Shown here piece by piece: positions 935-14,268 of a stretch of DNA of 64,000 nt. Numbering within the stretch: position 1 is the stretch's first letter; each line of letters starts with the position of its first letter. A program made the translations under genes and the position numbers. This DNA is from a virus (lineage: Duplodnaviria > Caudoviricetes). The stretch covers positions 20,498-84,497 of IMG/VR virus record IMGVR_UViG_3300032319_001071. One strand, written 5' to 3'. Under the pieces are notes generated by a model that saw only the letters and a program-made list of their open reading frames with translations, ran no database searches and was not told where the DNA came from.

Positions 935-1297
935 CTATTCGGATACTTTGGAGAGAATAATCCGTGAGCAGACTGATGGATGCATGGCGGATGATAGCGC
1001 AAAGTTTTTTACCTCTTCGACAGAGTAATGTTCGAGCAAATCCTTCCAGTCTTCTTCAAAAAATTTCTTTGAAAAATGACTGCCGGACTTTTCTGTAGCA
1101 TACACAATTTGCGCTGCTTTTGTTGCTCGTTGAAAGAGTTTCTGCGCTTCCTCGACGCTCAAGCCAGCAACGCCATTTCGTTTGTTTATCGATGAAGAAA
1201 TCGTTGATGATACAAGACAATCCATCTGTCGAATGGCGTCATCAACACTCATGGATGCTTCTTGAGGAGTATTTCGCATTGCGGCAAACATGTTCAT
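935..1297 (-). CDS. Hypothetical protein
   Basis: 120-aa ORF tightly packed between primase-helicase (1-nt overlap) and RuvC (abutting). Confidence 0.7.
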   Translation of the reverse strand: MNMFAAMRNTPQEASMSVDDAIRQMDCLVSSTISSSINKRNGVAGLSVEEAQKLFQRATKAAQIVYATEKSGSHFSKKFFEEDWKDLLEHYSVEEVKNFALSSAMHPSVCSRIILSKVSE

Positions 1298-3429
1298 TAC
1301 ATATCAGACCTATTTGACCGTAGTCCCCACATCTCAACTGACTCCCCCTCAACAGTACGAACCATGCGAGCAAGCGTGTACTGCTCCATTGAGCGCAATG
1401 TGTTCAGCAGTCCGGGTCCGGGTGAAACGTTGATTGCTTCCGCGATCTGTTCAATCGAAAGCGGACGGTTCTTTACCACATACTTGATGCGATCCTTCAG
1501 ACCGACCCCTCCTTCGCGAAGGGACTCTGCAGGGAGATCACCGGGATTCATCAGTTGCATTTGGAGCAAACTTGTCTCATCGCCCTCGTAAGGGAAATTG
1601 AAACGAATTGCAATAGGAGCATTCATGTTTCCTGCGTTGATTTTCTGATGAGTCATCAACACTTCTGCAGTACTGCTTCCCTCTTGCTGAATTTTTTTCA
1701 AGTGCCATGTAGAGCGCGACTGATTTTCCCACTGAACACCACCAAATGCGGTAGAAACCTCATCCTGAGCGCTGTTGCGATCATTCTTGGTGATATGAGC
1801 AAGAATTAGCGACCCCACACCCAACTGACTGATCCCTTGGAAAAACGCAACGATCTCATCGTTATCACTCGCGCGTCCACATGCAGGTGATGCCGAGTCG
1901 ATGATAATGTAGGTTATGCCTTCCTTGGCAATCAGGCGCTTGAGTTCATCAAGTTGCTTGCGAAGTGGGCGTCCGCCACAGTTGCGATACACGATATTGA
2001 CGCCACACCGCTCCTGATCCTGTGGGGAAATCAGCGTGTCAAGTCGCCGTGCGTGTTGTCCAACATCCCATTCCCAGTCAAGATACGCCACGTGATGTCG
2101 CGCAAGAGATGGGCCGAGACCAAGATCAAGACCTGTCTCCATTTGTACGGCAAGTGCAAGCGCAATATAGGATTTCATACCGCCGCCAGCAGAGAACCAA
2201 AGCGTTGGTTCCTTGGACAGCAACAGGGGTTTGTGGGCATATCCCATCTGCTGTGCCCGTGGCGCGTCACGCAAAAGAACCCAAGGGCTTCCTTGCGAGA
2301 ATTGACCAACGGTCAGACGTGCCATGTCTCCAACCATCTGCTTCCACGGAGGACCAAACATGCGCTTCTCCAATTCGGAGACAAGCGTCGAGATCATCCT
2401 GCTGTCCTTGAGTGCCACGTCAATCGGGCCATACAAGTACTTGGGAAGAGAAATGATGCCGTTGGTATGAACCTCAAGTTCCCCGACAACACCGTGCCGC
2501 TCGGAGTCCATGAGTTTCGAAAGCAGCATGTCGATGTTGAGGGAAGGCCACGTATATTTGTAGCCAATGCCGCTGGATGTCATCACAGGCGGATCAAGAA
2601 CACCGTGGTTTTTTGCCAGTTGCTGATAGGAACAGATGGAACGAACAACCGTCTTCAGTTCACGCATGCTGAACGGAGGCTGGCACCGTTCAGCCCAAGG
2701 CGTGATGATCTGCTCGATAATGTCCTTGCCGATGTTCCGGCCCCAGAAGTACCCCACAAGACGCGCTGCGTCCTCATTGCGTCGCCCTGAAGGCGATCCT
2801 GTGCTAATGAGTTCACTGACCCACTGGGGACGCTTTGTGTTGTCCGAGGGTGCTGCTTCATCTTCCTCTCGGACGCCCTCACCTCGCACCACCCAGCCCG
2901 GACAAGTGGCAAGTTCGACTTCGTGAAAGATGACGTAGGGAAGTTCGTCAATCTTGGACGGGCTGATGACGACATACCCGCCATCCGCCTTCACGTCAAC
3001 CTTGTGAAGGATTGGAAAACTCTTTACTTCAACGCCCTCTCCGGGGTGCTTGAAGAAAAGATGATGACCTCGAGGGGTCTTTTGCAAGAAGGTCTGGACA
3101 TTTGCCATTTCGGGATGATGCTTCTCGAGACTTTGCAATCCCTCCTCGCCATCAACATCTACGACAATGACTCCACTGATGCGGCCGCATACAACCGCCC
3201 AATTGCAGTCAGGATATTCCTTCAGCCACCTCGATACCTGATCGCGGGCGACGCGATTGTACTGATAGGTGTTCCATTTCAGGCGGACATCAAATGCAAC
3301 GCCGTCTGCCCCGGTACCTTGCGACACAACGACGGGGCGCTTGCCGTTTGGTTCGACCGGGAAGATGTTCCATCCCCGATCCAGATAAGACATCAGTGTG
3401 TCTTCTTTAGATAGCCCCACAAAAGTCAT
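1297..3429 (-). CDS. Bifunctional primase/polymerase (Prim-Pol) + PriCT-1 + RecA-fold (AAA_25-like) helicase
   Basis: GWNIFPV..NGKRP, NWAVVCG..SGVIVVDVD, KTPRGHHLFF, DVKADGGYVV (Prim-Pol); RRNEDAARLVG...CQPPFSMREL (PriCT-1); SAGGGMKS, YLDWE, IIIDS, LILAH (helicase). Start set at ATG 3429 after GGGAG. Confidence 0.9.
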   Translation of the reverse strand: MTFVGLSKEDTLMSYLDRGWNIFPVEPNGKRPVVVSQGTGADGVAFDVRLKWNTYQYNRVARDQVSRWLKEYPDCNWAVVCGRISGVIVVDVDGEEGLQSLEKHHPEMANVQTFLQKTPRGHHLFFKHPGEGVEVKSFPILHKVDVKADGGYVVISPSKIDELPYVIFHEVELATCPGWVVRGEGVREEDEAAPSDNTKRPQWVSELISTGSPSGRRNEDAARLVGYFWGRNIGKDIIEQIITPWAERCQPPFSMRELKTVVRSICSYQQLAKNHGVLDPPVMTSSGIGYKYTWPSLNIDMLLSKLMDSERHGVVGELEVHTNGIISLPKYLYGPIDVALKDSRMISTLVSELEKRMFGPPWKQMVGDMARLTVGQFSQGSPWVLLRDAPRAQQMGYAHKPLLLSKEPTLWFSAGGGMKSYIALALAVQMETGLDLGLGPSLARHHVAYLDWEWDVGQHARRLDTLISPQDQERCGVNIVYRNCGGRPLRKQLDELKRLIAKEGITYIIIDSASPACGRASDNDEIVAFFQGISQLGVGSLILAHITKNDRNSAQDEVSTAFGGVQWENQSRSTWHLKKIQQEGSSTAEVLMTHQKINAGNMNAPIAIRFNFPYEGDETSLLQMQLMNPGDLPAESLREGGVGLKDRIKYVVKNRPLSIEQIAEAINVSPGPGLLNTLRSMEQYTLARMVRTVEGESVEMWGLRSNRSDM

Positions 3430-3449
3430 AAGAATTCTCCCTAAAGGAA

Positions 3450-3472
3450 AGGGCACCGACCAGCGGTGCCCT
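3450..3472 (-). terminator. Probable intrinsic terminator between the DUF3150-like gene and primase
   Basis: 9-bp inverted repeat AGGGCACCG-N5-CGGTGCCCT; on the minus strand followed by TTCCTTT. Confidence 0.6.
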
Positions 3473-3497: not shown

Positions 3498-5084
3498 TTA
3501 GCGCGACCGGCGGACAACCGCCATGTCGTCTTCCTCGTCCTCAAACGGCACGGGAAGAGCATACGTGAGGAGAACTTGGCTGTCAAGTGCTTCAGCCTCG
3601 TCATCATCCGATTTGGTGACCCGAGAGACACGCTCCTGACCGCCAGAACGAACGGCAACGATGTCCTGCAAAATCTCCGCTGTATCCTGATCGGAATAGT
3701 GGGTGCGACGTGCCTCATGCCCGATAAGAGATTCGGCCTGCGTGCGGATGATGTTTACCGCACTGGCAATAATATTCGGCAATTCTGGCATGGATTCAGA
3801 AATCACCTTCTTCTTGCTTTTCTGTCCTGCAGACAGCGCAGAAAAGTGTTCGTTGATGTAGTTCTCAACTCGTTCTGCTTGCATCCGGATGGTCTCGAGG
3901 TCTTTCACCCCGGAACTCAAGGTCTTGATCATTTCTGACACCTTGAGCATGGAGTTGAGTTGCATTGCGCTGAGACTATTCTCATCGTCACGCATCAGGC
4001 CGAGACAATTGATGAATACCGACTCGCTGCGCTCAACGATGGCTTTGACGTAAGCCACGGTGAGTTCGTGAGACTGAGATTGACGAGTCTGCTCGACACG
4101 CTTAGCAATGCTTCGCAGCGCGAAACGCTCTTGAACCATTTCGCCAAATTCGTCCACATCATCTTCGAGTTCCATGATGCGGTTGCGCAACTCATCGCGT
4201 TCAGCCATGATCTTCCACGCATCTTCGTCTTCGTGCCACATCTTTCGCATTGTCTCGTCCGCCTTTACCCGTTCAGGCTTCGGTGCCCAATAGAACTTGG
4301 CTTCAACCGTATATTTACGGATGATGTCGTCCTTTGATGGCCATGCACGCATGACAACCTTCTGCCACCGACGCACCCATTCCAACGGAGGAATGATTTG
4401 TTCTGAATACTCACCATTGTCGCCAAGAACCTGACGGCTAATCTGCTCTGGCGCAGTCTTCTTCAGGCGATTGTAGACATCAAGCGCAATTTGAGAATAA
4501 TGCGCGATAGAGGAAGATTTGAGTCGATCATAATTTTCGACAATGATTTGTGCAGCGCCCAAATGAGTAAGGCGTGCCTTCTCGTACTCTTCGTTCCACT
4601 TTTCCCATGTCGAGAACGGAATAAACGTCGCACCGTTGAGCGGGATGCTCAGCCATGAAGAAAAAGAAGGATTGGCAATGCTCTTGTTTCCGCCTTCGTC
4701 GTACCGAGTAGGGAAAAGCATTCGAACTTTACGTTCTGTTACTTCAGGCATGGGAATGGTATAGCGGACACCGTCTTTCTCGTGCCACATTTCGTCCTTG
4801 GGCAAGAGCGATCCGCGCGATGATGAACGAAGGACGGCATCAATGGCCGTCATTACTTTGTCCTTGCGCTTGCTATCGGTTGCTACGAGGCCAAGGTCTG
4901 ACAACTTCAGGGCAAGGGCAAATCGCTCTGCGGTGACACGAACATTTGTCATGACCCCCGTTTCAAAAATCTTTGCCATATCAGACTGGACAATGGCCTT
5001 GGGGGTAGTGTCCAATCCAAGTTGAACACGAATTTCTTCGCCACGTTCCTGCACAAAGGAATCGGGGGTAATCGCGCTGGTCAT
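3498..5084 (-). CDS. DUF3150-like protein with helical/coiled-coil C-terminus
   Basis: Spacing of motifs VMTNVRV...LKLSDLGL, SRGSLLP, TFIPF...EYEKARL...IVENYD, AWPSKDDIIRKYTV resembles my recollection of DUF3150; no search run. Confidence 0.45.
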   Translation of the reverse strand: MTSAITPDSFVQERGEEIRVQLGLDTTPKAIVQSDMAKIFETGVMTNVRVTAERFALALKLSDLGLVATDSKRKDKVMTAIDAVLRSSSRGSLLPKDEMWHEKDGVRYTIPMPEVTERKVRMLFPTRYDEGGNKSIANPSFSSWLSIPLNGATFIPFSTWEKWNEEYEKARLTHLGAAQIIVENYDRLKSSSIAHYSQIALDVYNRLKKTAPEQISRQVLGDNGEYSEQIIPPLEWVRRWQKVVMRAWPSKDDIIRKYTVEAKFYWAPKPERVKADETMRKMWHEDEDAWKIMAERDELRNRIMELEDDVDEFGEMVQERFALRSIAKRVEQTRQSQSHELTVAYVKAIVERSESVFINCLGLMRDDENSLSAMQLNSMLKVSEMIKTLSSGVKDLETIRMQAERVENYINEHFSALSAGQKSKKKVISESMPELPNIIASAVNIIRTQAESLIGHEARRTHYSDQDTAEILQDIVAVRSGGQERVSRVTKSDDDEAEALDSQVLLTYALPVPFEDEEDDMAVVRRSR

Positions 5085-5124: not shown

Positions 5125-5153
5125 ATGGTAGCGCATGACGGGCGGGTTGTCAA
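5125..5153 (-). promoter_or_regulatory. Sigma70-type promoter for the 5084 gene
   Basis: Minus strand TTGACA-17 nt-TACCAT with an upstream T-tract (UP-element-like), about 40 nt before the ATG at 5084. Confidence 0.8.
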
Positions 5154-5171: not shown

Positions 5172-5300
5172 CTACGATGCCGGATTTAACTGGAGCAAAA
5201 AAACCCAAAGCGCATTCCACGCATACGCAACAATCAAGGCAGTGGTAACGAGCATAAGCAATTCGTATTTGTCTGGACCTGCGGGGTGATTTCCAAACAT
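5172..5300 (-). CDS. Small membrane peptide (42 aa)
   Basis: MFGNHPAGPDKYELLMLVTTALIVAYAWNALWVFLLQLNPAS*; one hydrophobic helix; starts 2 nt after the stop of the preceding small ORF. Below the ORF-track cutoff. Confidence 0.5.
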   Translation of the reverse strand: MFGNHPAGPDKYELLMLVTTALIVAYAWNALWVFLLQLNPAS

Positions 5301-5302
5301 TT

Positions 5303-5395
5303 TTATTGACCGGTAAATGTAGAATAAATCATGTAAAAAGCGAATAGCAATCCAAGAATATTGCCAAGGACCACAAGCAGTTCGGCGTCGCTCAT
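5303..5395 (-). CDS. Small membrane peptide (30 aa)
   Basis: MSDAELLVVLGNILGLLFAFYMIYSTFTGQ*; one hydrophobic helix; starts 5 nt after the stop of the 5401 gene. Confidence 0.5.
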   Translation of the reverse strand: MSDAELLVVLGNILGLLFAFYMIYSTFTGQ

Positions 5396-5400
5396 CTGCT

Positions 5401-5796
5401 TCATTCTTCCCCGTCCCATGGAATATAGCCAGATTGTTTTACTAATTCATTTTCCATTTCATAGACATTCTTCAGCATTTCATAGTACTTTCCATTGATA
5501 TAATCGATCATTTCACTACAACCTGCATAAAATATTTCCTTTGTTACCCCTTCGATAGGTCGTACATACTCATGAACTTGTGGAATGCGGTTCATTTCGT
5601 ACCAATCCCAATCCATTCCAAAAGCATTTGGCTTTTCGTCGAGCAAGTTTATCATGTACTTACCGATCTCGGTCGCCCACGCTTTGCGTAACTTTCCGTT
5701 GAGATACACACGAATGGGGTCGCCTTCTTTCTCGATTGAGACAGAAACGCCATATCCTGACATCCAATTCATTTTGTATGTTTTTTTTGGCATCAT
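5401..5796 (-). CDS. Hypothetical protein
   Basis: Likely start MMPKKT at 5796 after CAGGA; fits operon packing. Confidence 0.65.
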   Translation of the reverse strand: MMPKKTYKMNWMSGYGVSVSIEKEGDPIRVYLNGKLRKAWATEIGKYMINLLDEKPNAFGMDWDWYEMNRIPQVHEYVRPIEGVTKEIFYAGCSEMIDYINGKYYEMLKNVYEMENELVKQSGYIPWDGEE

Positions 5797-5816
5797 GGCG
5801 TTTGTTCCTGTGTGTA

Positions 5817-6137
5817 TTATTCTGCGAGATTTCGGTCTTGAACTCGCCACGGCACGGGGCGTCTCTGTTCGAGTTTGGACATTGGCAGGCTGATATAATC
5901 GATGATGTCCTGTCGTCTCAAATACATGATTTGACGGGATTGGCCGCCAACGCGCAAAGCCTGCAATCGTCCTTCAATAACTGCCTGTCGGAATGTGGTG
6001 CGGTTCACTCCGTACCTGTTCATTGCATCATACAAGGAAAGGAAGTCGTCAAGCGTCTCTCCGTCGAGCAGGGCGATACGTTTCCGTACATCTTCCGGAG
6101 ACCGTACAGGATTTTTTGTTGCATGTATACTTTTCAT
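5817..6137 (-). CDS. Excisionase-like helix-turn-helix DNA-binding protein (HTH_17/MerR-like)
   Basis: FLSLYDAMNRYGVNRTTFRQAVIEGRLQALRVGG...YLRRQDIIDYI matches the excisionase-type wHTH pattern. Confidence 0.75.
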   Translation of the reverse strand: MKSIHATKNPVRSPEDVRKRIALLDGETLDDFLSLYDAMNRYGVNRTTFRQAVIEGRLQALRVGGQSRQIMYLRRQDIIDYISLPMSKLEQRRPVPWRVQDRNLAE

Positions 6138-6160
6138 TGCAGCCTTATAAGGAGTTAGTT

Positions 6161-6586
6161 ATGAACAAACAGCAAAACCAAGTAGCGCAATTCATGAAAG
6201 CATTTGGACAAACTGTTCCGGGTGCATTTTCCCCGGAACAGTTTCCTGCAGAACTTCGCATTTCACTGATCAATGAAGAAGCAAGGGAGTTCTCAGAAGC
6301 AGTGAAGAATCAAGATTGGGTCGAAACAATTGATGCCATTTGCGATTTGCTGTACGTCACATATGGCGCTGCCGTTGCGCTGGGAATTGACATCGAACCC
6401 TTTTTTGATGAGGTGCATCGATCCAACATGTCCAAATTGGACGTGAATGGTCGGCCTATTCATCGGGCTGATGGCAAGGTCATCAAGTCGGATCGTTGGT
6501 CTCCACCAGCGATTGATCGGGTTCTGGAGATAGTTCCGATTGTGCCCCAGTATCGTTTTGAGAAAGCGACTGAAGCGTCTTCATAA
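6161..6586 (+). CDS. MazG-like all-alpha NTP pyrophosphohydrolase (PRA-PH / DR2231-like)
   Basis: LRISLINEEAREF...ETIDAICDLLYVTYG...FFDEVHRSNMSK motif; TAAGGAG RBS before ATG 6161. Only credible plus-strand gene. Confidence 0.9.
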   Translation: MNKQQNQVAQFMKAFGQTVPGAFSPEQFPAELRISLINEEAREFSEAVKNQDWVETIDAICDLLYVTYGAAVALGIDIEPFFDEVHRSNMSKLDVNGRPIHRADGKVIKSDRWSPPAIDRVLEIVPIVPQYRFEKATEASS

Positions 6587-7475
6587 AGAGACGGACTTGG
6601 GGGCTTGCTGTTTCCAGAGTTTCAGGCTGATGCTCCATCGCCCAGTAAATATAGCGACGGGCAATGTCCCGACGAACGCCTATTGATCCTGATTCTGCAA
6701 CTTCGTTGTCTCTCAAGGTCTCTTTGCGCCTCTTGATCACTGTTGCAGCGTCCTTGATGGACAGTTTGAACATCTTTCGAATTGCCCGAATGTCCTCTGG
6801 AGTCGGCCAATCTGCCGAAAGGGATTCTCCTTCAGGTTGAGGAAGAAAACCATTTGATACCAAGTGCTGTTGAAGTTCCAAAGAAATAGTGGCCATTCTG
6901 TCTGGGTGATTGGTTGCAACCCATTCACCCAGTTTGAAGATCATCTTTTGCAAAATTTCCGTATTCATTCCGACTGGAGTAATTTCATATTTTGCAAAAG
7001 TAGATTTTGCGACTGAGCATATTGCTGCACAGTCCTTAATGCTGACCATGCTCATAAAACGCAATTGCCGCAACTCCACTCCGGTTCCCCACTTACCATC
7101 AGCAAGGCGCTTGGTGGCGTTATTTCCATGCACAGTCTTGAGTGATGGCATGGATTCTTCGGTCATTCCTGACCCTAAATGAACCAACGCGCCAACGGTC
7201 GTTCCAAGATTTCCGCCAAAGTGAAGGGCGGAAATTGATTCTATTGTTTTGAAAAATGTTTCTGATATGCGAATTGTCACGGAAACAGTGTCAAGCATTG
7301 AATACGAATACGCATCTGCCTGTTGACGAATGCCTTTTTGCATCAATCCAAGAATAACGGGATTGATAGGCATTTTTGATTCCAAGATTTTTTTAACTAA
7401 AGATTTCTTCAGAAAGACACGAACTAATTTTGATTCACTTTGTATGTCGGAAACAGGGACAATTATTGTCTGCAT
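6483..7475 (-). CDS. Multidomain DNA-binding regulator (RHH-like N-terminus, two XRE-type HTH)
   Basis: TVSVTIRISETFFKTIE (RHH-like); ELRQLRFMSMVSIKDCAAICSVAKSTFAKYE and DIRAIRKMFKLSIKDAATVI (XRE HTH). Start set at ATG 7475, 1 nt after the upstream stop. Confidence 0.6.
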   Translation of the reverse strand: MQTIIVPVSDIQSESKLVRVFLKKSLVKKILESKMPINPVILGLMQKGIRQQADAYSYSMLDTVSVTIRISETFFKTIESISALHFGGNLGTTVGALVHLGSGMTEESMPSLKTVHGNNATKRLADGKWGTGVELRQLRFMSMVSIKDCAAICSVAKSTFAKYEITPVGMNTEILQKMIFKLGEWVATNHPDRMATISLELQQHLVSNGFLPQPEGESLSADWPTPEDIRAIRKMFKLSIKDAATVIKRRKETLRDNEVAESGSIGVRRDIARRYIYWAMEHQPETLETASPQVRLFMKTLQSLSQNDTGAQSELSPEPDQSLVETNDPT

Positions 7476-7476
7476 G

Positions 7477-7725
7477 TTATTTGTGGGAAGGGTGATGTTC
7501 TCGTATGAATACATCTGCGGAAATGGTGTATATTTTGTCGCCGTGCTGTTTGACAGTTTTGTTGACATTTTTCACATGTACCGATTTTTTATTGCTACTG
7601 ATTCCGACAATTCGCCGCTTGTGATTGAGATGTGTTTTCCGCGTTGTCATCCAGATTGATCCCACATAAAGATTGGGATACTCAATTGGATACTCCATGA
7701 CCTTGATCATTTTCTTGGACATCAA
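7477..7725 (-). CDS. Small basic hypothetical protein
   Basis: AAAGGA RBS before MSKKMIK; stop is 1 nt before the next start. Confidence 0.65.
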   Translation of the reverse strand: MMSKKMIKVMEYPIEYPNLYVGSIWMTTRKTHLNHKRRIVGISSNKKSVHVKNVNKTVKQHGDKIYTISADVFIREHHPSHK

Positions 7726-7753
7726 GATTTTCCTTTGAGAGGTGTGGGAGGTG

Positions 7754-9685
7754 CTAACGCACCCCCCTCTCGCTTGGCCCCATCTCGTCGTCTTCGATTT
7801 CCCGAAGCAACTTCTTCACTTCCCGATCTTGCTTGCGAGCAAAGCCGGGAGGAAGCATGTCGTCATCGGTGCATTGCGCAGCCGCAAGGTACGACAGCGT
7901 CTCGGTACGGGCAGTATCAACACGATACAACTCGGTAGCGCGACGCAGGAACCCAGCAACATCGGATGTGAACTCTCGCTTTTGACGGCGAGCAAGGCTC
8001 ACGGCCTTTTCCACCAAGATGGAAAGGTTGGCTTGGGTGTACCAGCGCGTAGCATCTCCGATCACCTCGTCAGGAACCTCGCACTCTTCAGGACGAAGCC
8101 CCTGCTCGCGTTGCAGGATGTTCATGACAACCTGCAGCCGATCCTCTGGCATCATCGGCGGAAGCACCGGGATGATTGTCTGAAGGCGACGCTTCATGGC
8201 AGAGTCGATGTTGTCAGGACGATTGGTCGCGCCAACAAACAACAGACGCCCCTTGATATCGTCACGCTCCAGCCATGGCATCAGAATTGACAGCATCTTG
8301 CTGCCAACGCCAGACGTGTCAACGGAACCTCCGTCTCGGCTCGTCAGGGCCACGTCGATCTCATCGACAAACAGCATGCAAGGAAGATTGGCCTCAACCC
8401 AGTTGAGTACCTTCTGCAGTTGCTGCTCCGATTCGCCAACCCACTTGGATTGCGTGAGAGCGGGAGACCAATGCACACACTTGTATCCGAGTTCGTACGC
8501 AATCGCATACGCAAGGACGCTCTTGCCTGTGCCGGGAGGCCCAGCCTTCAAGATGTTGGCATTGCGACGACGCCCTTCGCGAAATTCCCCCAAGAACCAC
8601 TCGAGGTATTCCACCAAATATGGCGGGAAACCATAATCCCTTAGCCCCTTGGTCGGATTGATGACCGTGAGGTATTCGGAACCACCTTGACCCGCAAAGG
8701 TCTCGGAAATGGTCTCGTTGATGATGCGCTGGACCATGTCGCGGCTAAGGTTGCCATGACGCTCACCAGTGAGGCGCATGTCCTCAATGGCGCGAATGGT
8801 AAGCCCGCCAGTTGCTCCGGCTAGCCACGAGATTTGGCGCGTATCGGGCACATTGTCTCCGAAGTCGATACTTACGCGCTCCAAATATGAAGGAGTAAGA
8901 ACGCGCTCGGAAATGTACCACTCCCGTTCGTTGTACACCGGAAACCCAACATTGACAGGAATCCAGCCTGACGAGACACGCCCACGAGAGAGCGCATTGT
9001 TGACCTCTGGCTTCTCTTCGGTGATGCCGAAAAGAATGTGGCCAGTCCCTGCGGACTTCCACTTCTTGCCATGACCCCCAACGTTCTCGAAGTCCAGCCC
9101 CCACGAGCGAGCAAAAAGGACAGATTGAGTGAACATTTCACCCATGGTGTCCCATTCGCCACGAGGACAAATGGACTGAAACTCCTCGAGGATGACGCAC
9201 AGGCGGACATCTGTCTGCTGAAGTGCTTCATTCAAGAGAGGAATGGCAAGCGCGGGATTCTTGGATCGTTCCAAGATATCGCTCTTTTGGCCGCCGGAAA
9301 TTCCTCCTGCTGCATCAGAAGCACCGGAAAATCTTCCGCCACGGATTGCACCAACACCAGCCGCAGCATTGCCTGCCTGCGTCTTCTCAAGCAAAGCCTT
9401 GAACTTCTCGGCATCTGCAGCGCGTTTCTCGACCCCGCCAAGGAAACGGAATCCGTGAGCGCGATGATAGACCACGACAATGTCGAAATCCAATTGCGGA
9501 TGCTTGTTGGGGACAGTCTTGTTGCCGAAGATGTGGTAGATGTTGGCCTGCAGCGTGTAACTGCTCGCGTCAACATCATGGATGCCGGTACCGGACAAGA
9601 GGAAGGCATGGCCCTCTCCTGTCTGGTACTTGCGGACCACAGTGCGGAGCCATTCTGGACGGGGGGTCTCTTTGCCGTCTGCCAT
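7754..9685 (-). CDS. Classical-clade AAA+ ATPase with degenerate N-terminal AAA domain (Ycf46/SpoVK-like architecture)
   Basis: Walker A GPPGTGKS, pore loop SKWVGESE, Walker B LFVDEID, SRH GATNRPDNIDSAMKRR; N-terminal HAFLLSG...HD and CVILEEF relic motifs. Confidence 0.9.
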   Translation of the reverse strand: MADGKETPRPEWLRTVVRKYQTGEGHAFLLSGTGIHDVDASSYTLQANIYHIFGNKTVPNKHPQLDFDIVVVYHRAHGFRFLGGVEKRAADAEKFKALLEKTQAGNAAAGVGAIRGGRFSGASDAAGGISGGQKSDILERSKNPALAIPLLNEALQQTDVRLCVILEEFQSICPRGEWDTMGEMFTQSVLFARSWGLDFENVGGHGKKWKSAGTGHILFGITEEKPEVNNALSRGRVSSGWIPVNVGFPVYNEREWYISERVLTPSYLERVSIDFGDNVPDTRQISWLAGATGGLTIRAIEDMRLTGERHGNLSRDMVQRIINETISETFAGQGGSEYLTVINPTKGLRDYGFPPYLVEYLEWFLGEFREGRRRNANILKAGPPGTGKSVLAYAIAYELGYKCVHWSPALTQSKWVGESEQQLQKVLNWVEANLPCMLFVDEIDVALTSRDGGSVDTSGVGSKMLSILMPWLERDDIKGRLLFVGATNRPDNIDSAMKRRLQTIIPVLPPMMPEDRLQVVMNILQREQGLRPEECEVPDEVIGDATRWYTQANLSILVEKAVSLARRQKREFTSDVAGFLRRATELYRVDTARTETLSYLAAAQCTDDDMLPPGFARKQDREVKKLLREIEDDEMGPSERGVR

Positions 9686-9706
9686 AAGAGTAATCCTTTC
9701 GGAAAA

Positions 9707-10258
9707 TTAAGCCAGCAGTCCGCTGGCACGGGAGACTTGGCGCTTTGCCTCGTCATCAATGTCAAGTTTGACGACTTCGGCGGAAAGGCCCATCTGGCGG
9801 ATGCGTTCAATCACCCGTCCAAACTCGCCACCGGCTAACCATACACTATCATCGTGCAAGGCGTCAAGGAAGTCGATTTCAAATTCCAGCGTCTTGTACA
9901 CGACGACGCCAATGGTCGCGTTACGGGTCACGTCACGTGCATGGATAACCCACGTGCCCTCGTGATCAGGCTCGACCCACGCGTTCATTTCGTATCCCTC
10001 TGCCATGAGGGAATCAAAAATCTGACGGGCAACATACGTTTGCTGGTAACGCGTCTTTGCCTCATCCATTTTGCTTGGCTCGTCATTATAGGACGAAAGC
10101 ATCAGACCGCCAGAGCGACCAGCGCGAATGGAAAAGCCAAGAGGAAGAGACAGCCCAAGTCTCTCAATCATGTGTTCCCACATCTGGGCTGTCTGGGCAA
10201 CTTGTTCGGAAGTTGCATCCTTGATTGCCGTTTCGACGAGAATGTCATGGCAAGGCAT
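9707..10258 (-). CDS. Small AAA-ATPase partner, possible DUF1257-DUF2997-like fusion
   Basis: Start MPCHDILVETAIKD after AAAGGA; RYQQTYVARQIFDSLMAEGYEM..EGTWVIH then a beta-beta-alpha tail. Family call from memory of pattern and context only. Confidence 0.4.
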   Translation of the reverse strand: MPCHDILVETAIKDATSEQVAQTAQMWEHMIERLGLSLPLGFSIRAGRSGGLMLSSYNDEPSKMDEAKTRYQQTYVARQIFDSLMAEGYEMNAWVEPDHEGTWVIHARDVTRNATIGVVVYKTLEFEIDFLDALHDDSVWLAGGEFGRVIERIRQMGLSAEVVKLDIDDEAKRQVSRASGLLA

Positions 10259-10323
10259 AAGCGTAGTTCCTTTCATCAGCCAGCGTTGTGCTGACACAGG
10301 TATATCATGCCCTGTTTCGTCTG

Positions 10324-10890
10324 TCAAGTGGTTTCGGAAGAATTCCTCAAAACTGTCCGGATATCCTGTCCGTCAATTTCATTGCCTATCGTCAACCAGC
10401 CGGGTCGGGGCTTTCGTGCAAACAGTTCTGCCCGAGAAACATCACCAAAAAGACGTTCGGCGCGAAGGAAAAATTCCTCTGGCTTTTCCGAATGTCGTCC
10501 CACAGGAGCATTGATCCAGCGACGCACATCGGCATGCGCTCGAGAAAGACCTGTCCCCTTGGAAAGGAGCCAGCATTGCTCAGGATTCGCGCGAGTATAA
10601 TACCCGCCTCCCATGTGCAATGCTCCGGAGGGCTTTGTTTTTGTCCAATAGAACGCCACGGTTTTGAATTTCAATCCCCATGCATCAACCACGCTCATGC
10701 ACTGATCGAGCATTGGGTCAATCACCCAAAGAAGCACCACGGCGTTGGTGTCGAGAAAGTCGCGGATTGGCAATGTCCGCAATTCCTCAATGGTCATGCG
10801 GTCGTATTTGGGCGACCGATCTTCGCCTTTCGGAGAACGTGCGGACCAGAGCCAAGGCGGATCTATTGCAACCAGTTGTGGTTTTGTCAT
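10324..10890 (-). CDS. MT-A70 family N6-adenine methyltransferase
   Basis: AIDPPW, YDRMTIEELRTLP, VLLWV, WGLKFKT..FYWTK, HSEKPEEF, ELFARK..GW..GNE; ATGA-coupled to the upstream SLT gene. Confidence 0.9.
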   Translation of the reverse strand: MTKPQLVAIDPPWLWSARSPKGEDRSPKYDRMTIEELRTLPIRDFLDTNAVVLLWVIDPMLDQCMSVVDAWGLKFKTVAFYWTKTKPSGALHMGGGYYTRANPEQCWLLSKGTGLSRAHADVRRWINAPVGRHSEKPEEFFLRAERLFGDVSRAELFARKPRPGWLTIGNEIDGQDIRTVLRNSSETT

Positions 10891-11456
10891 CTCCGCAAAA
10901 GTGCCCACACCAAGGGGATGACGAAGAATGTCAGGCAAATCGCTGGGGGAGTTGGTGTCGGGGACACCTGATACGGAGAGACAGGCGTGGGGGTCGCCAT
11001 GATCGCTGTTTGTGTGGCCGGAACCTCTGTCGTCTTGACTGACACGGGAATGGCTTGCTGCTGACGGTCAGCGCGAAGTTGATCGGCATTGGCAAGGATC
11101 GGCCCAACATACCGACGCATTTCGTACTCCGGTACCCTGCCACCAAAGCCCATGACCGTTGGCGATCCCATGTGATATGCAGCCAAGGCCAATTTGTAAC
11201 TGTCGTCAAAAAGGTCAAGGTAGGATCGCATTAACTTGGCAGAATACTGGAGCGACGCAATCGGATCGCGAGGATTCACGCCCGGATGAAAGTTCGGCAT
11301 GATCTGGGCTATGCCAACTGCCCCGGCCCCACTGACCGCCATTGGGTTCCAATGACTCTCGGTGGTGATCATTGCGATAAAAATGTCGCCATCGATGTTG
11401 TTATTCTGCGCTGCGGTGCGAGCCACCTGCTGATAGAAGAGTGTCCATTTGTCCAT
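10887..11456 (-). CDS. Lytic transglycosylase (SLT) with Pro/Thr linker and C-terminal membrane anchor
   Basis: IAMITTESHWNPMAVSGAGAVGIAQIMP (catalytic E), ALAAYHMG; tail PTPTPPAICLTFFVIPLVWALLRR; GGGAGG RBS. Confidence 0.9.
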   Translation of the reverse strand: MDKWTLFYQQVARTAAQNNNIDGDIFIAMITTESHWNPMAVSGAGAVGIAQIMPNFHPGVNPRDPIASLQYSAKLMRSYLDLFDDSYKLALAAYHMGSPTVMGFGGRVPEYEMRRYVGPILANADQLRADRQQQAIPVSVKTTEVPATQTAIMATPTPVSPYQVSPTPTPPAICLTFFVIPLVWALLRR

Positions 11457-11486: not shown

Positions 11487-12014
11487 TCATATTCCGTGAA
11501 CAACATGCTGCATGTCTCGATTTCCGAGATGCTTGATCCCGTTGATCGATTCCTGCAAATCGCGCTGAATCAACTTCAGTTTTTCCACCGTAGCGGAAAG
11601 TCGATTCAGTTTTCGTCGTGGCTCATCGCCGGGAGAGACGCTCAAGGACCGTACCACAGCCGGATACAGTTTGGCAAGAGCATCAAGGTTGCTCGTCGCC
11701 AACTCTCCGGCCGCTTTGGCGGCTTCGCCAGTCAACTTGTACTCGCTTCTAGAACCAAGCATCAGCATGATTTGCGAGGACAGTTCGTCACTTTGTGTCT
11801 GGAACTCGCTACGAAGTTCCAATGCATCAGCATACAACATGCCGATTCTGTGATTCAATGTCACCAATTTCCAAATGAAATCATGAGATTGAATAACATC
11901 CCGAAGATCAAGCCTGCTAAATTCGTAAAGCAAGGTACTTGCTTCCGAAATTGCCGGACTAATTTCTTTCTGAAACCACTGAACTACCGGATCAGTTTCA
12001 GAATCCTGAGTCAT
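11487..12014 (-). CDS. Hypothetical all-helical protein (weak UvsY-like resemblance)
   Basis: TAAGGA RBS; amphipathic helices; KLTGEAAKAA and terminal GIKH loosely recall UvsY. Function not supported. Confidence 0.6.
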   Translation of the reverse strand: MTQDSETDPVVQWFQKEISPAISEASTLLYEFSRLDLRDVIQSHDFIWKLVTLNHRIGMLYADALELRSEFQTQSDELSSQIMLMLGSRSEYKLTGEAAKAAGELATSNLDALAKLYPAVVRSLSVSPGDEPRRKLNRLSATVEKLKLIQRDLQESINGIKHLGNRDMQHVVHGI

Positions 12015-12076: not shown

Positions 12077-12655
12077 TTATTTACGTAGATTACGGTTTAT
12101 ATATTCCGAATCTACCGGTAAGAGTACAACGGAAGGAGAAAATACGCCTTTCTTTTTGGCGTAATCCAAAGCAAACTCCACGTTTGAGCGGAGCAAGACC
12201 GAAGCAATGCTGTCGGTCATCGCCAACTCTACCAGACGCTGACCGGCATTGTCAACAGTGGTTGGCTCTGCACATGAGTGTTCGGCATTCCAGTCTCCGA
12301 AAATGCCCAAGGAAATCCAGTCTTTTTTTCCGGGGGTTTCTTCTCCATGCAATGCTTTATGATGATTTTTTTGAAAAAAATCGCCGCAAAGATATATATG
12401 GTTGGTGTACTCATCAATCAACCCGACAGATTGAGAGCGAGGTACAATATGATGAAGATCGAGGGGTCGATCATGACTGCCAATGGCAACACAATGCGGA
12501 TGAGCGCATTTGCGGTATCGACCTTGCTCACTTTCTTCGCGAGTAGATGAAACAGCAATCTTGAGAAGTTTCCGAAGCCGTTCCGGGTCACGATGGACCC
12601 GGAACTGTCGGGAAATCTGTTCTGCCTTGCTGTATTGACGGAGTGTTTCACCCAT
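12077..12655 (-). CDS. HNH endonuclease
   Basis: CAHPHC...DLHHIVPRS...NHIYLC...NHHKALH; overlaps the endolysin stop by 8 nt. Confidence 0.85.
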   Translation of the reverse strand: MGETLRQYSKAEQISRQFRVHRDPERLRKLLKIAVSSTREESEQGRYRKCAHPHCVAIGSHDRPLDLHHIVPRSQSVGLIDEYTNHIYLCGDFFQKNHHKALHGEETPGKKDWISLGIFGDWNAEHSCAEPTTVDNAGQRLVELAMTDSIASVLLRSNVEFALDYAKKKGVFSPSVVLLPVDSEYINRNLRK

Positions 12656-13385
12656 TAGCCAATTCGGATTTCAACGCACCGATCTGATTGATCCATCCTT
12701 CAACAGATGTCTCATTGGCGTTGAGACCTGCAATGATCCGCACCACCGCCTCTGCGTGATCAATGTAATTGATCTCACGAACAGCATCAAGTAACGCTTG
12801 ATATTTTGGCGCATCGTCGGTTGAAATGCCAAATTCTGCAAAAGGATCGATGGAGCCAAGGCACTTGCACTGCTCACACGAACCGCAATGTTCGTCATAA
12901 TCGGCACAAAATTGAATAGGATTCATATAGACGTTGTCAACTTGCTCCTTGGTTTTCAATTCACCCCCCCAATATCCCCATTCCATTGGATGTCCAAGTT
13001 TGACTTCAAAATGAAGGTGAGCAAATTGTTGGCCTCCGGATTTGCCGCATTTGCCAATTTCGTCTCCGCGTTTTACAGCAACACCGATGTCGCCTTGTCC
13101 GTAGATGAAACTGTCTGCATGCGCATAATGAACCCATTTGCCTTCATGAGGACCGGCAGACACTTCCCACCACTGATGATTGCCAAAGCCTCTGCCCGAG
13201 AATACGCTTGCACGTAGCACCATTGGGCAAACTGCAATCAACGGGGAACCTAAATCGGCATCACCTCCTCCTCCGCAGTTAAAATCGACACCGGCATGTA
13301 CAGAATTGGTGTAAGTACTCCAATCTCCATACTCCCATCCCCCCATGGTTGGATTATGCTGTGTAGCGTCACGAAGCGGGAACAT
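12648..13385 (-). CDS. Endolysin, M23 family zinc peptidase with helical C-terminal domain
   Basis: HAGVD, HYAH, GDEIGKCGKSG, HLHFEV; GGAGG RBS before MFPLRD at 13385; sits downstream of the holin. Confidence 0.9.
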   Translation of the reverse strand: MFPLRDATQHNPTMGGWEYGDWSTYTNSVHAGVDFNCGGGGDADLGSPLIAVCPMVLRASVFSGRGFGNHQWWEVSAGPHEGKWVHYAHADSFIYGQGDIGVAVKRGDEIGKCGKSGGQQFAHLHFEVKLGHPMEWGYWGGELKTKEQVDNVYMNPIQFCADYDEHCGSCEQCKCLGSIDPFAEFGISTDDAPKYQALLDAVREINYIDHAEAVVRIIAGLNANETSVEGWINQIGALKSELANG

Positions 13386-13581
13386 TGGTTTCCTCCTGTG
13401 ATGACTGAGTCTTCTTGGCATCTTCCACTTGCTGTTTCAATGCTCCAATTTCATTGATCCATGCCTCGATGGATGTTTCATTGGCGTTCAATCCCGCAAT
13501 AAGACGAATGACAGACTCTGCATGATTAATAAAATTTAATTCCTTGACTGCAGAAATCAAGGATTTTTCTGCATCACTCAT
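13369..13581 (-). CDS. Stand-alone paralogue of the endolysin C-terminal domain
   Basis: TAAGGAG RBS; 30/42 aa identical to the last ~50 aa of the endolysin (manual alignment). Confidence 0.85.
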   Translation of the reverse strand: MSDAEKSLISAVKELNFINHAESVIRLIAGLNANETSIEAWINEIGALKQQVEDAKKTQSSQEETNVPAS

Positions 13582-13645: not shown

Positions 13646-13849
13646 CTACCGTTTAATCTTGTTGTTTCTTAGCAGCCACTTTTGAAATTCAAATCGCTTT
13701 TTCATGCTCTCATCAGTGTTAAACACATTGTGTGCTTCTTCATGTATCTTGTTGTTTGTCCAGATTGACTTGAGAGTTTCAAGTCGCTCGATATCATCCT
13801 CAGTTAATTCATTGACAGATAGGTCTCGAGGGGGGCGGACTGGCTTCAT
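13646..13849 (-). CDS. Small hypothetical protein
   Basis: ATGA-coupled to the holin; ends RFEFQKWLLRNNKIKR. Confidence 0.7.
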   Translation of the reverse strand: MKPVRPPRDLSVNELTEDDIERLETLKSIWTNNKIHEEAHNVFNTDESMKKRFEFQKWLLRNNKIKR

Positions 13850-14268
13850 GCAATTTTCCTTTTTGTGGTGTGTTTAAGGTCATGGACACAAGATTCTATC
13901 AAAACCCGAGCGGCCACAGAAGTAAAAAACTTGATGCTGTTTGCTTTGGAATATTCTTCAAGTACAGAATTGGCATAATCATATTTAACAGTATTGTCGC
14001 CTTTGTTGATAGTTTGCTCTGCGGTTTCAACGGCCATCTTGGCTATAAATGATAAATTATGCCATTCTGTGGCGGCTCGTTCAGAAACAAGTTTGTTCTG
14101 ATATGCACGCAACAAAAAGGGCACAAAAAATGCCACAGAACAAATTGCAAATGTTAAGGAAATATTAAGAACATCTTCAATAATAAATGAGATTAATTGC
14201 TGCTGTTCGGGAGAAAGAATGCCGAGTGTTGAGCCGCCTTGCACAAGGAGTGTAAGTGCTTTAATCAT
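13846..14268 (-). CDS. Holin, LL-H-like
   Basis: One N-terminal TM (VLNISLTFAICSVAFFVPFLL) then AVETAEQ...KYDYA...VLIESCVHDLK pattern; GGAGG RBS; upstream of the endolysin. Confidence 0.7.
   Translation of the reverse strand: MIKALTLLVQGGSTLGILSPEQQQLISFIIEDVLNISLTFAICSVAFFVPFLLRAYQNKLVSERAATEWHNLSFIAKMAVETAEQTINKGDNTVKYDYANSVLEEYSKANSIKFFTSVAARVLIESCVHDLKHTTKRKIA

Follow-up and report, generated by a model that had tools for sequence, protein, structure and literature searches.

The window examined here is a stretch of 64,000 nucleotides (nt) that corresponds to positions 20498-84497 of the IMG/VR virus record IMGVR_UViG_3300032319_001071, which is 84.5 kb long. Two adjacent genes on its minus strand are the subject of this report: a gene for a 183-amino-acid (aa) protein, referred to here as the partner (9707-10258), and downstream of it a gene for a 643-aa tandem AAA+ ATPase (7754-9685, the whole gene including its stop codon). 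The gap between the partner gene and the ATPase start is 21 nt, each gene has an AAAGGA ribosome-binding site in front of it, and a consensus scan finds no obvious strong terminator between them. As described below, this pair belongs to the core genes of a single clade of large, uncultured myoviruses.

The second of the two AAA+ modules of the ATPase, D2 (about residues 345-600; 7886..8653, minus strand), is the active one and is defined by the Pfam family PF00004, by a profile search of PDB sequences and by its invariant residues. PF00004 matches residues 379-506 (E 2.6e-28, 99.5 bits versus a cut-off of 21.2). In an alignment of 24 homologues that are 60-83% identical, the Walker A motif G382-x-P-G-T-G-K388-S (GPPGTGKS), the Walker B residues D441-E442, the pore loop K414-W-V-G417, the sensor-1 residue N488 and the paired arginines R499-R500 are all invariant. 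The protein thus has the Walker A and B motifs, sensor-1 asparagine, arginine fingers and pore loop of a classical AAA+ ATPase, as proposed in an earlier note that was made from the sequence of this DNA alone. In the search of PDB sequences D2 resembles the D2 modules of Cdc48, p97, VAT and NVL with E values of 1e-39 to 1e-42, and the best match is Cdc48 D2 (E 3.7e-42).

The first module, D1 (about residues 6-335; 8681..9670, minus strand), is recognized from the alignment and from an AlphaFold2 (AF2) model. Residues 1-345 have no Pfam match, and D1 used alone as a query finds matches confined to the same clade. The position of its P-loop reads LLSGTGIHD, and the pattern L-L-S-G-x-G-I-H-D is present in all 24 sequences; because Gly-Lys-Ser/Thr is missing there, the first ring is degenerate, and on this point too the earlier note was correct. 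D1 keeps an acidic Walker-B-like sequence, I-L-[DE]-E-F-Q (ILEEFQ in this protein), and contains a disordered glycine-rich loop at residues 105-134. At the other end of the protein, a conserved YRVDTxRTExLSY (residues 587-599) closes D2 just upstream of a C-terminal extension (7757..7885, minus strand), in which invariant columns mark a conserved LLPPGF (residues 611-615) ahead of a disordered, acidic tail. In the AF2 model, the pLDDT (predicted local distance difference test) values are low beyond residue 632.

The AF2 model of the ATPase, which has a pLDDT of 80, shows the tandem fold along nearly its entire length. It matches Rix7 deltaN with Z 19.9 over 464 residues (model residues 6-600), VAT with Z 19.8 over 468 residues and NVL with Z 19.6 over 484 residues, in all three cases through both modules. 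For Rix7, VAT, NVL and p97 together the scores are Z 19.4-19.9, with 455-488 residues aligned between residue 6 and residue 600 or 620 of the model; when Pex1/6 are added the range becomes Z 16.9-19.9, again with 455-488 residues aligned and starting at model residue 1-6. Residue 6 of the model pairs with residue 202 of Rix7, so the phage protein begins directly at D1, and a search for N-domain Pfam families of the CDC48_N type found none in the ATPase. In its tandem layout the ATPase is therefore Cdc48/NVL/Rix7-like, with D1 dead and the N-terminal adaptor domain missing. Four other identities were considered and rejected, namely IetA, TRIP13, PAN and FtsH, whose family models the ATPase sequence matches only through the generic AAA domain.

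The start of the partner is the ATG at 10258. This assignment is based on the N-terminus, MPCHDIL, in which M1, C3, H4, D5, I6 and L7 do not vary among 23 homologues of the partner. A second motif, FEIDFLDxxHDDSVWLxGGEFGR (residues 126-148), is also invariant. No family was found for the protein in Pfam, PHROGs, NCBIfam or PADLOC, a tblastn search of phages gave no match and neither did a profile search of PDB sequences. A word-indexed search returned 30 clusters with 48-76% identity, all of them metagenomic, and a full hidden Markov model search of 1.84 billion representatives added three distant relatives with 22-27% identity (P0155, P0156 and P0158). These three sit on contigs of 1-2.4 kb and were not found in IMG/VR; they keep Cys3-His4, the only N-terminal residues that are still invariant when they are included, but not the HDD motif. 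As judged from these searches, the partner is an orphan family. Readings of MPCH as an N-terminal nucleophile, as a tautomerase-type Pro1 or as an ATCUN (amino-terminal copper and nickel binding) motif were dropped, since Pro2 varies and the histidine of the distant relatives is placed differently.

The AF2 model of the partner is one compact alpha+beta domain, with a pLDDT of 83 and a predicted template-modelling score (pTM) of 0.80. Foldseek found nothing at E<=1e-3 for this model in PDB and BFVD; the weak rows were AdoMetDC and a spermine-synthase N-domain. An exhaustive structural aligner, for which the usual background is Z 7-8, gave KA1-like domains as the best matches, the first with Z 9.4 (106 residues, root-mean-square deviation [rmsd] 2.8) and the second with Z 8.3 (87 residues, rmsd 2.2). 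The identity to KA1-type domains (the METTL16 VCR and the KA1 domains of Chk1, MARK and AMPK) is 7-8%, with no common motif or context. Given the low identity and the near-background scores, the predicted likeness may be only a common fold arrangement. In a protein atlas, the whole partner gave chance-level scores (0.79-0.81), and residues 1-112 gave no named match.

The partner and the ATPase strictly co-occur within their clade. An IMG/VR scan seeded with the partner returned six contigs, in all of which the ATPase is downstream in the same order, and a scan seeded with the ATPase returned the same six. Several of the metagenomic homologues of the two proteins pair up on contigs of equal size, and the two families are equally narrow in distribution. 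The tight linkage of a small gene to the ATPase, which the earlier note had pointed out, is therefore evident both in the 21-nt gap and across the clade, and the neighborhood survey that the note had proposed places the pair together in six related contigs, although these form one syntenic clade. Concerning the lineage, the window's record is 59% complete by CheckV, and a related IMG/VR record of 184 kb is 97% complete; the latter identifies the window's phage as a member of a large uncultured myovirus lineage. Nearly all of the window genes are on the minus strand, including those for the tail sheath, baseplate and fibres, and the terminase and portal genes are in the remaining 20 kb of the record, outside the window. 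The DNA is thus from a phage, as had been thought. A nucleotide search of the region against collections of deposited phages and plasmids gave no match.

Two sequence signals near the pair deserve mention. A promoter-like TTGACA, 17-nt spacer, TATACC was read in the sequence at 10299..10327 (minus strand), where it overlaps the stop codon of the preceding MT-A70 methyltransferase gene and is some 40 nt from the start of the partner gene downstream; without a T at the end of its -10 hexamer, it is missed by the consensus scan. A similar promoter-like TTGACA-17-TACCAT precedes the gene for a 528-aa protein (5125-5153, minus strand). The 528-aa gene and the partner-ATPase pair may both be early units read by the host polymerase, and no operator common to the two sites is evident in the window. 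The other signal, a hit of the consensus scan only, is a GC-rich hairpin of 7 bp (GCCAGCGGACTGCTGGC) with the tail TTAATTTTCC after it, at 9711-9727 (minus strand); it ends shortly ahead of the stop codon of the partner, which is inside that tail. Such a hairpin could be a weak attenuator that sets the ratio of partner to ATPase.

What, then, would the pair do? Our preferred interpretation, to which we assign a probability of about 0.5, is a D2-driven unfoldase that acts in the infected cell with a lineage-specific cofactor or on a dedicated substrate. The ATPase would be a hexameric classical-clade unfoldase or translocase with a reduced version of the Cdc48/p97, VAT, NVL and Rix7 build. D1, having lost nucleotide binding, would probably serve as a structural ring and docking platform, and D2 would be the motor, with the K-W-V-G loop pulling a polypeptide through the pore. 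The partner would most likely be either a dedicated in-trans cofactor (an adaptor or regulator) or a dedicated substrate of the ATPase. Because the two genes lie between lysis-type genes and the primase-polymerase gene, the pair probably acts inside the infected cell, presumably on a host or phage protein complex.

Several observations weigh against this interpretation, and two of them are also what one would expect if the partner and the ATPase were mere neighbors in a conserved core block that work independently. First, synteny is conserved across the six related contigs all the way from the M23 peptidase through to the primase-polymerase, so the adjacency could simply be inherited; the co-occurrence comes from a single clade and does not count as independent support for a functional link. 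Second, an extra gene lies between the partner and the ATPase in two of the seven genomes, a calcineurin-like metallophosphoesterase in one (relative L001, 10571-11506) and a 108-aa open reading frame (ORF) in the other (relative L002), so insertions are tolerated there. In addition, the KA1-like match of the partner, at Z 9.4 barely above background, is uninformative on function. A complex prediction for the ATPase and the partner scored 0.00, which is no verdict, neither for nor against binding.

If the two proteins were only neighbors, the ATPase would act alone or together with another protein (the 528-aa one or the primase-polymerase, for example), and the partner might be a small enzyme or a metal-binding protein that uses Cys3-His4; the invariance of these two residues in the distant relatives does hint at a chemistry of the partner's own. 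However, the 21-nt spacing, the same style of ribosome-binding site and the lack of any obvious strong terminator in the gap all argue against mere neighborhood, as does the very narrow distribution, which is identical for the two families. Furthermore, Cdc48-type enzymes work with cofactors, and by analogy an ATPase without an adaptor domain would be expected to have one in trans. We consider independent function rather unlikely.

A different explanation grew out of the suggestion in the earlier note that the two halves of the partner resemble the small proteins DUF1257 (PF06868, Ycf35) and DUF2997 (PF11211). In this case, the partner would be a diverged single-chain DUF1257-DUF2997 fusion, and the pair would be a re-ordered, reduced version of an AAA+ module of phages and bacteria. 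The module itself is real. Distant AAA matches among named phages led to Rhizobium phage L338C (KF614509; DUF1257 E 1.2e-9, DUF2997 E 3.5e-6) and Pseudomonas phage SM1 (KU245542; DUF1257 E 4.6e-6, DUF2997 E 8.8e-9), which also served as positive controls for the two families; in both phages DUF1257 and DUF2997 are encoded two to three genes downstream of an AAA+ ATPase of about 560 aa. Ten IMG/VR contigs have the order AAA+, a protein of about 205 aa, DUF1257 and DUF2997. The association of an AAA+ ATPase with both small families, which had been anticipated, is therefore well founded in these two phages and ten contigs. The ATPase gene follows lysis genes in L338C and SM1, and in L338C a replicative helicase gene is downstream, which is reminiscent of the position of the pair in the window.

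Some features of the partner itself also point toward a fusion. Both families have an invariant histidine just before strand 1 (MPCH in the partner, MSHT in DUF1257). In relaxed hhalign alignments, partner residues 2-111 are colinear with the whole of DUF1257 and residues 111-159 with positions 1-45 of DUF2997, and these alignments reproduce the likenesses seen by eye, MPCH...T.IKD versus MSHT...IK and RYQQ.YV...L..EGY...EG versus L.Q.Y...A...GY...dG. The DUF2997 part reached P 0.015 (probability 2.9%), compared with 0.36 for a reversed control. The order of secondary structure in the AF2 model looks compatible by eye with DUF1257 and then DUF2997. The colinear likeness is suggestive but falls short of statistical support.

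The direct tests did not favor a fusion. With family cut-offs of 22.2 bits for DUF1257 and 24.1 bits for DUF2997, neither family was matched at E<=10 by the partner, its 22 close relatives and the three distant ones (26 sequences in all), nor in six-frame searches of the window's record and five related records, so that even the 97%-complete relative encodes no DUF1257 or DUF2997 by this search. Compared with ten phage DUF1257 sequences by hhalign, the partner profile gave P 0.12-0.19 at a probability below 1%, no better than a reversed control (0.14), and all probabilities for either family stayed below 3%; the profiles were shallow (effective number of sequences about 2.5-3.2) and run without secondary structure. 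Of the supposed resemblance of the partner halves, what is left is the colinear likeness seen by eye, a compatible order of secondary structure and the weak DUF2997 signal.

The ATPases do not help the case for a fusion. Between the window's ATPase and those linked to DUF1257, which are Ycf46-like, the AAA domain is the only part that aligns confidently, and the N-terminal regions have no detectable homology by hhalign (E 0.31); with neither a detectably shared N-terminal region nor adjacency to the two small families, the ATPase is not assigned to that group. D2 is far closer to Cdc48 D2 than to the DUF1257-linked ATPases (E 3.7e-42 versus about 1e-20), although the searches are not strictly comparable. 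In addition, the gene order is reversed, and no counterpart of the protein of about 205 aa was found, since hhalign comparisons of the partner and of the 175-aa and 528-aa proteins of the window with the remaining genes of the DUF1257 module (X, Y and Z) gave no match. The earlier note had also placed a DUF3150-like gene nearby; however, the 528-aa protein has no Pfam match at E<=0.1, and a six-frame search of the window's record found no DUF3150 (PF11348, cut-off 24.9 bits) at E<=10. DUF3150 is likewise absent from the L338C and SM1 records. Taken together, we regard a fusion as rather unlikely, to the same degree as independent function of the two genes.

A more specific scheme, in which a self-contained, phage-specific unfoldase with a dead D1 dismantles one particular host complex, for instance one of defence or proteostasis, and the partner is its detachable adaptor, perhaps also a single-chain end member of DUF1257/DUF2997, strikes us as improbable.

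Some observations on the DUF1257 module are of interest in their own right. It includes an AAA+ ATPase of about 550 aa, the protein of about 205 aa, DUF1257, DUF2997 and often a protein of about 115 aa, all annotated only as hypothetical. The DUF1257 gene of SM1 (SM1_029) is annotated from a GTG, which cuts off MSHTSSIK; an ATG is 63 nt upstream. A genome scan with the DUF1257 profile found one locus, on a phage-like Paracoccus contig, and among 401 genomes from that phylum two have DUF1257; the DUF2997 alignment varied too much for a scan of this kind. A profile search of PDB sequences found no solved DUF1257 structure. In the literature we found no paper describing the phage AAA+/DUF1257/DUF2997 module, and the only published mentions found concern the cyanobacterial duf2997-ycf35-fed7 cluster (PMC4284462).

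The remaining genes around the pair, all on the minus strand, follow each other in the direction of transcription as a holin-like gene (13846-14268), an M23 peptidase (12648-13421), an HNH-like gene (12077-12655), a 175-aa protein (11487-12014), an SLT transglycosylase (10887-11456) and the MT-A70 methyltransferase (10324-10938) upstream of the pair, with the 528-aa protein (3498-5084) and a primase-polymerase fused to a helicase-type domain (1297-3456) downstream. The 175-aa and 528-aa proteins have no assigned family, and neither matched one in PHROGs, NCBIfam or PADLOC. Elsewhere in the same record there is a NinI-like phosphatase gene (locus L007, 8256-9254).

Between the ATPase and the 528-aa genes is a low-GC island (about 5200-7600), with 41-47% GC compared with 51-56% in the flanks. 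It contains an 81-aa ORF (7477-7722), a 361-aa HTH (helix-turn-helix)/MqsA-like protein (6483-7568), a MazG/PRA-PH-like gene on the plus strand (5993-6586), a small HTH gene and a 149-aa ORF. A tblastn search of the six related contigs matched no gene of the island, which therefore looks like a variable, moron-type insertion hotspot. The earlier note had treated 7477-10258 as one unit; this range does hold the partner and the ATPase, but it also includes the 81-aa ORF, which belongs to the island and not to the pair. As listed, the 361-aa and 81-aa ORFs have 92 nt in common, and as read from the sequence an in-frame ATG just past the 81-aa stop codon (MQTIIVP...) is more likely to be the start of the 361-aa gene.

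Among the central machines of the cell are classical AAA+ unfoldases that have private cofactors, and we found no published description of one in phages. If the preferred interpretation of a D2-driven unfoldase is right, the pair would be such a machine reduced to a minimum of two genes, one for a motor whose D1 is dead and which lacks an adaptor domain, the other for a small, well-folded protein, and it would be a tractable system for learning what phages unfold during infection. If instead the partner should turn out to be a fused DUF1257-DUF2997, an orphan phage family would be tied to the ycf35-type genes of cyanobacteria and plastids, and the compact fold of the window protein would reveal the packing of Ycf35 against its own partner and the docking of both on their ATPase.

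Besides the KA1-type domains discussed above, two known systems provide the closest comparisons. The DUF1257 modules of L338C (genes 050-053) and SM1 (genes 026-030) resemble the window pair in that a large phage encodes an ATPase of 550-640 aa with small dedicated genes alongside, the ATPase combines a single active AAA domain with about 300 N-terminal residues that are non-catalytic, and the genes come after lysis genes and, in L338C as in the window, before a replication gene. However, DUF1257 and DUF2997 are two proteins encoded downstream of their ATPase, whereas the window partner is one protein encoded upstream, and the middle gene of about 205 aa has no counterpart beside the window ATPase. 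The type II unfoldases, which include Cdc48/p97, archaeal VAT, NVL/Rix7 and AFG2/SPATA5, have two stacked AAA+ modules like the phage ATPase, and their D2 has the same Walker A and B motifs, aromatic pore loop, sensor 1 and arginine fingers. The phage protein differs from them in its extra loops at residues 105-134 and about 198-215, in a C-terminal motif, YRVDT...LLPPGF, that is unique to it, in the lack of the N-terminal double-psi-barrel adaptor domain of Cdc48/p97-type unfoldases, and in a D1 that has lost the P-loop lysine and matches no family by sequence. The Cdc48/p97 family model TIGR01243 reflects the same relationship: the phage ATPase has the tandem modules, and lacks the N-domain, the nucleotide-binding D1 and a family-level score, with 84 bits versus a cut-off of 802.65 and only D2 matched.

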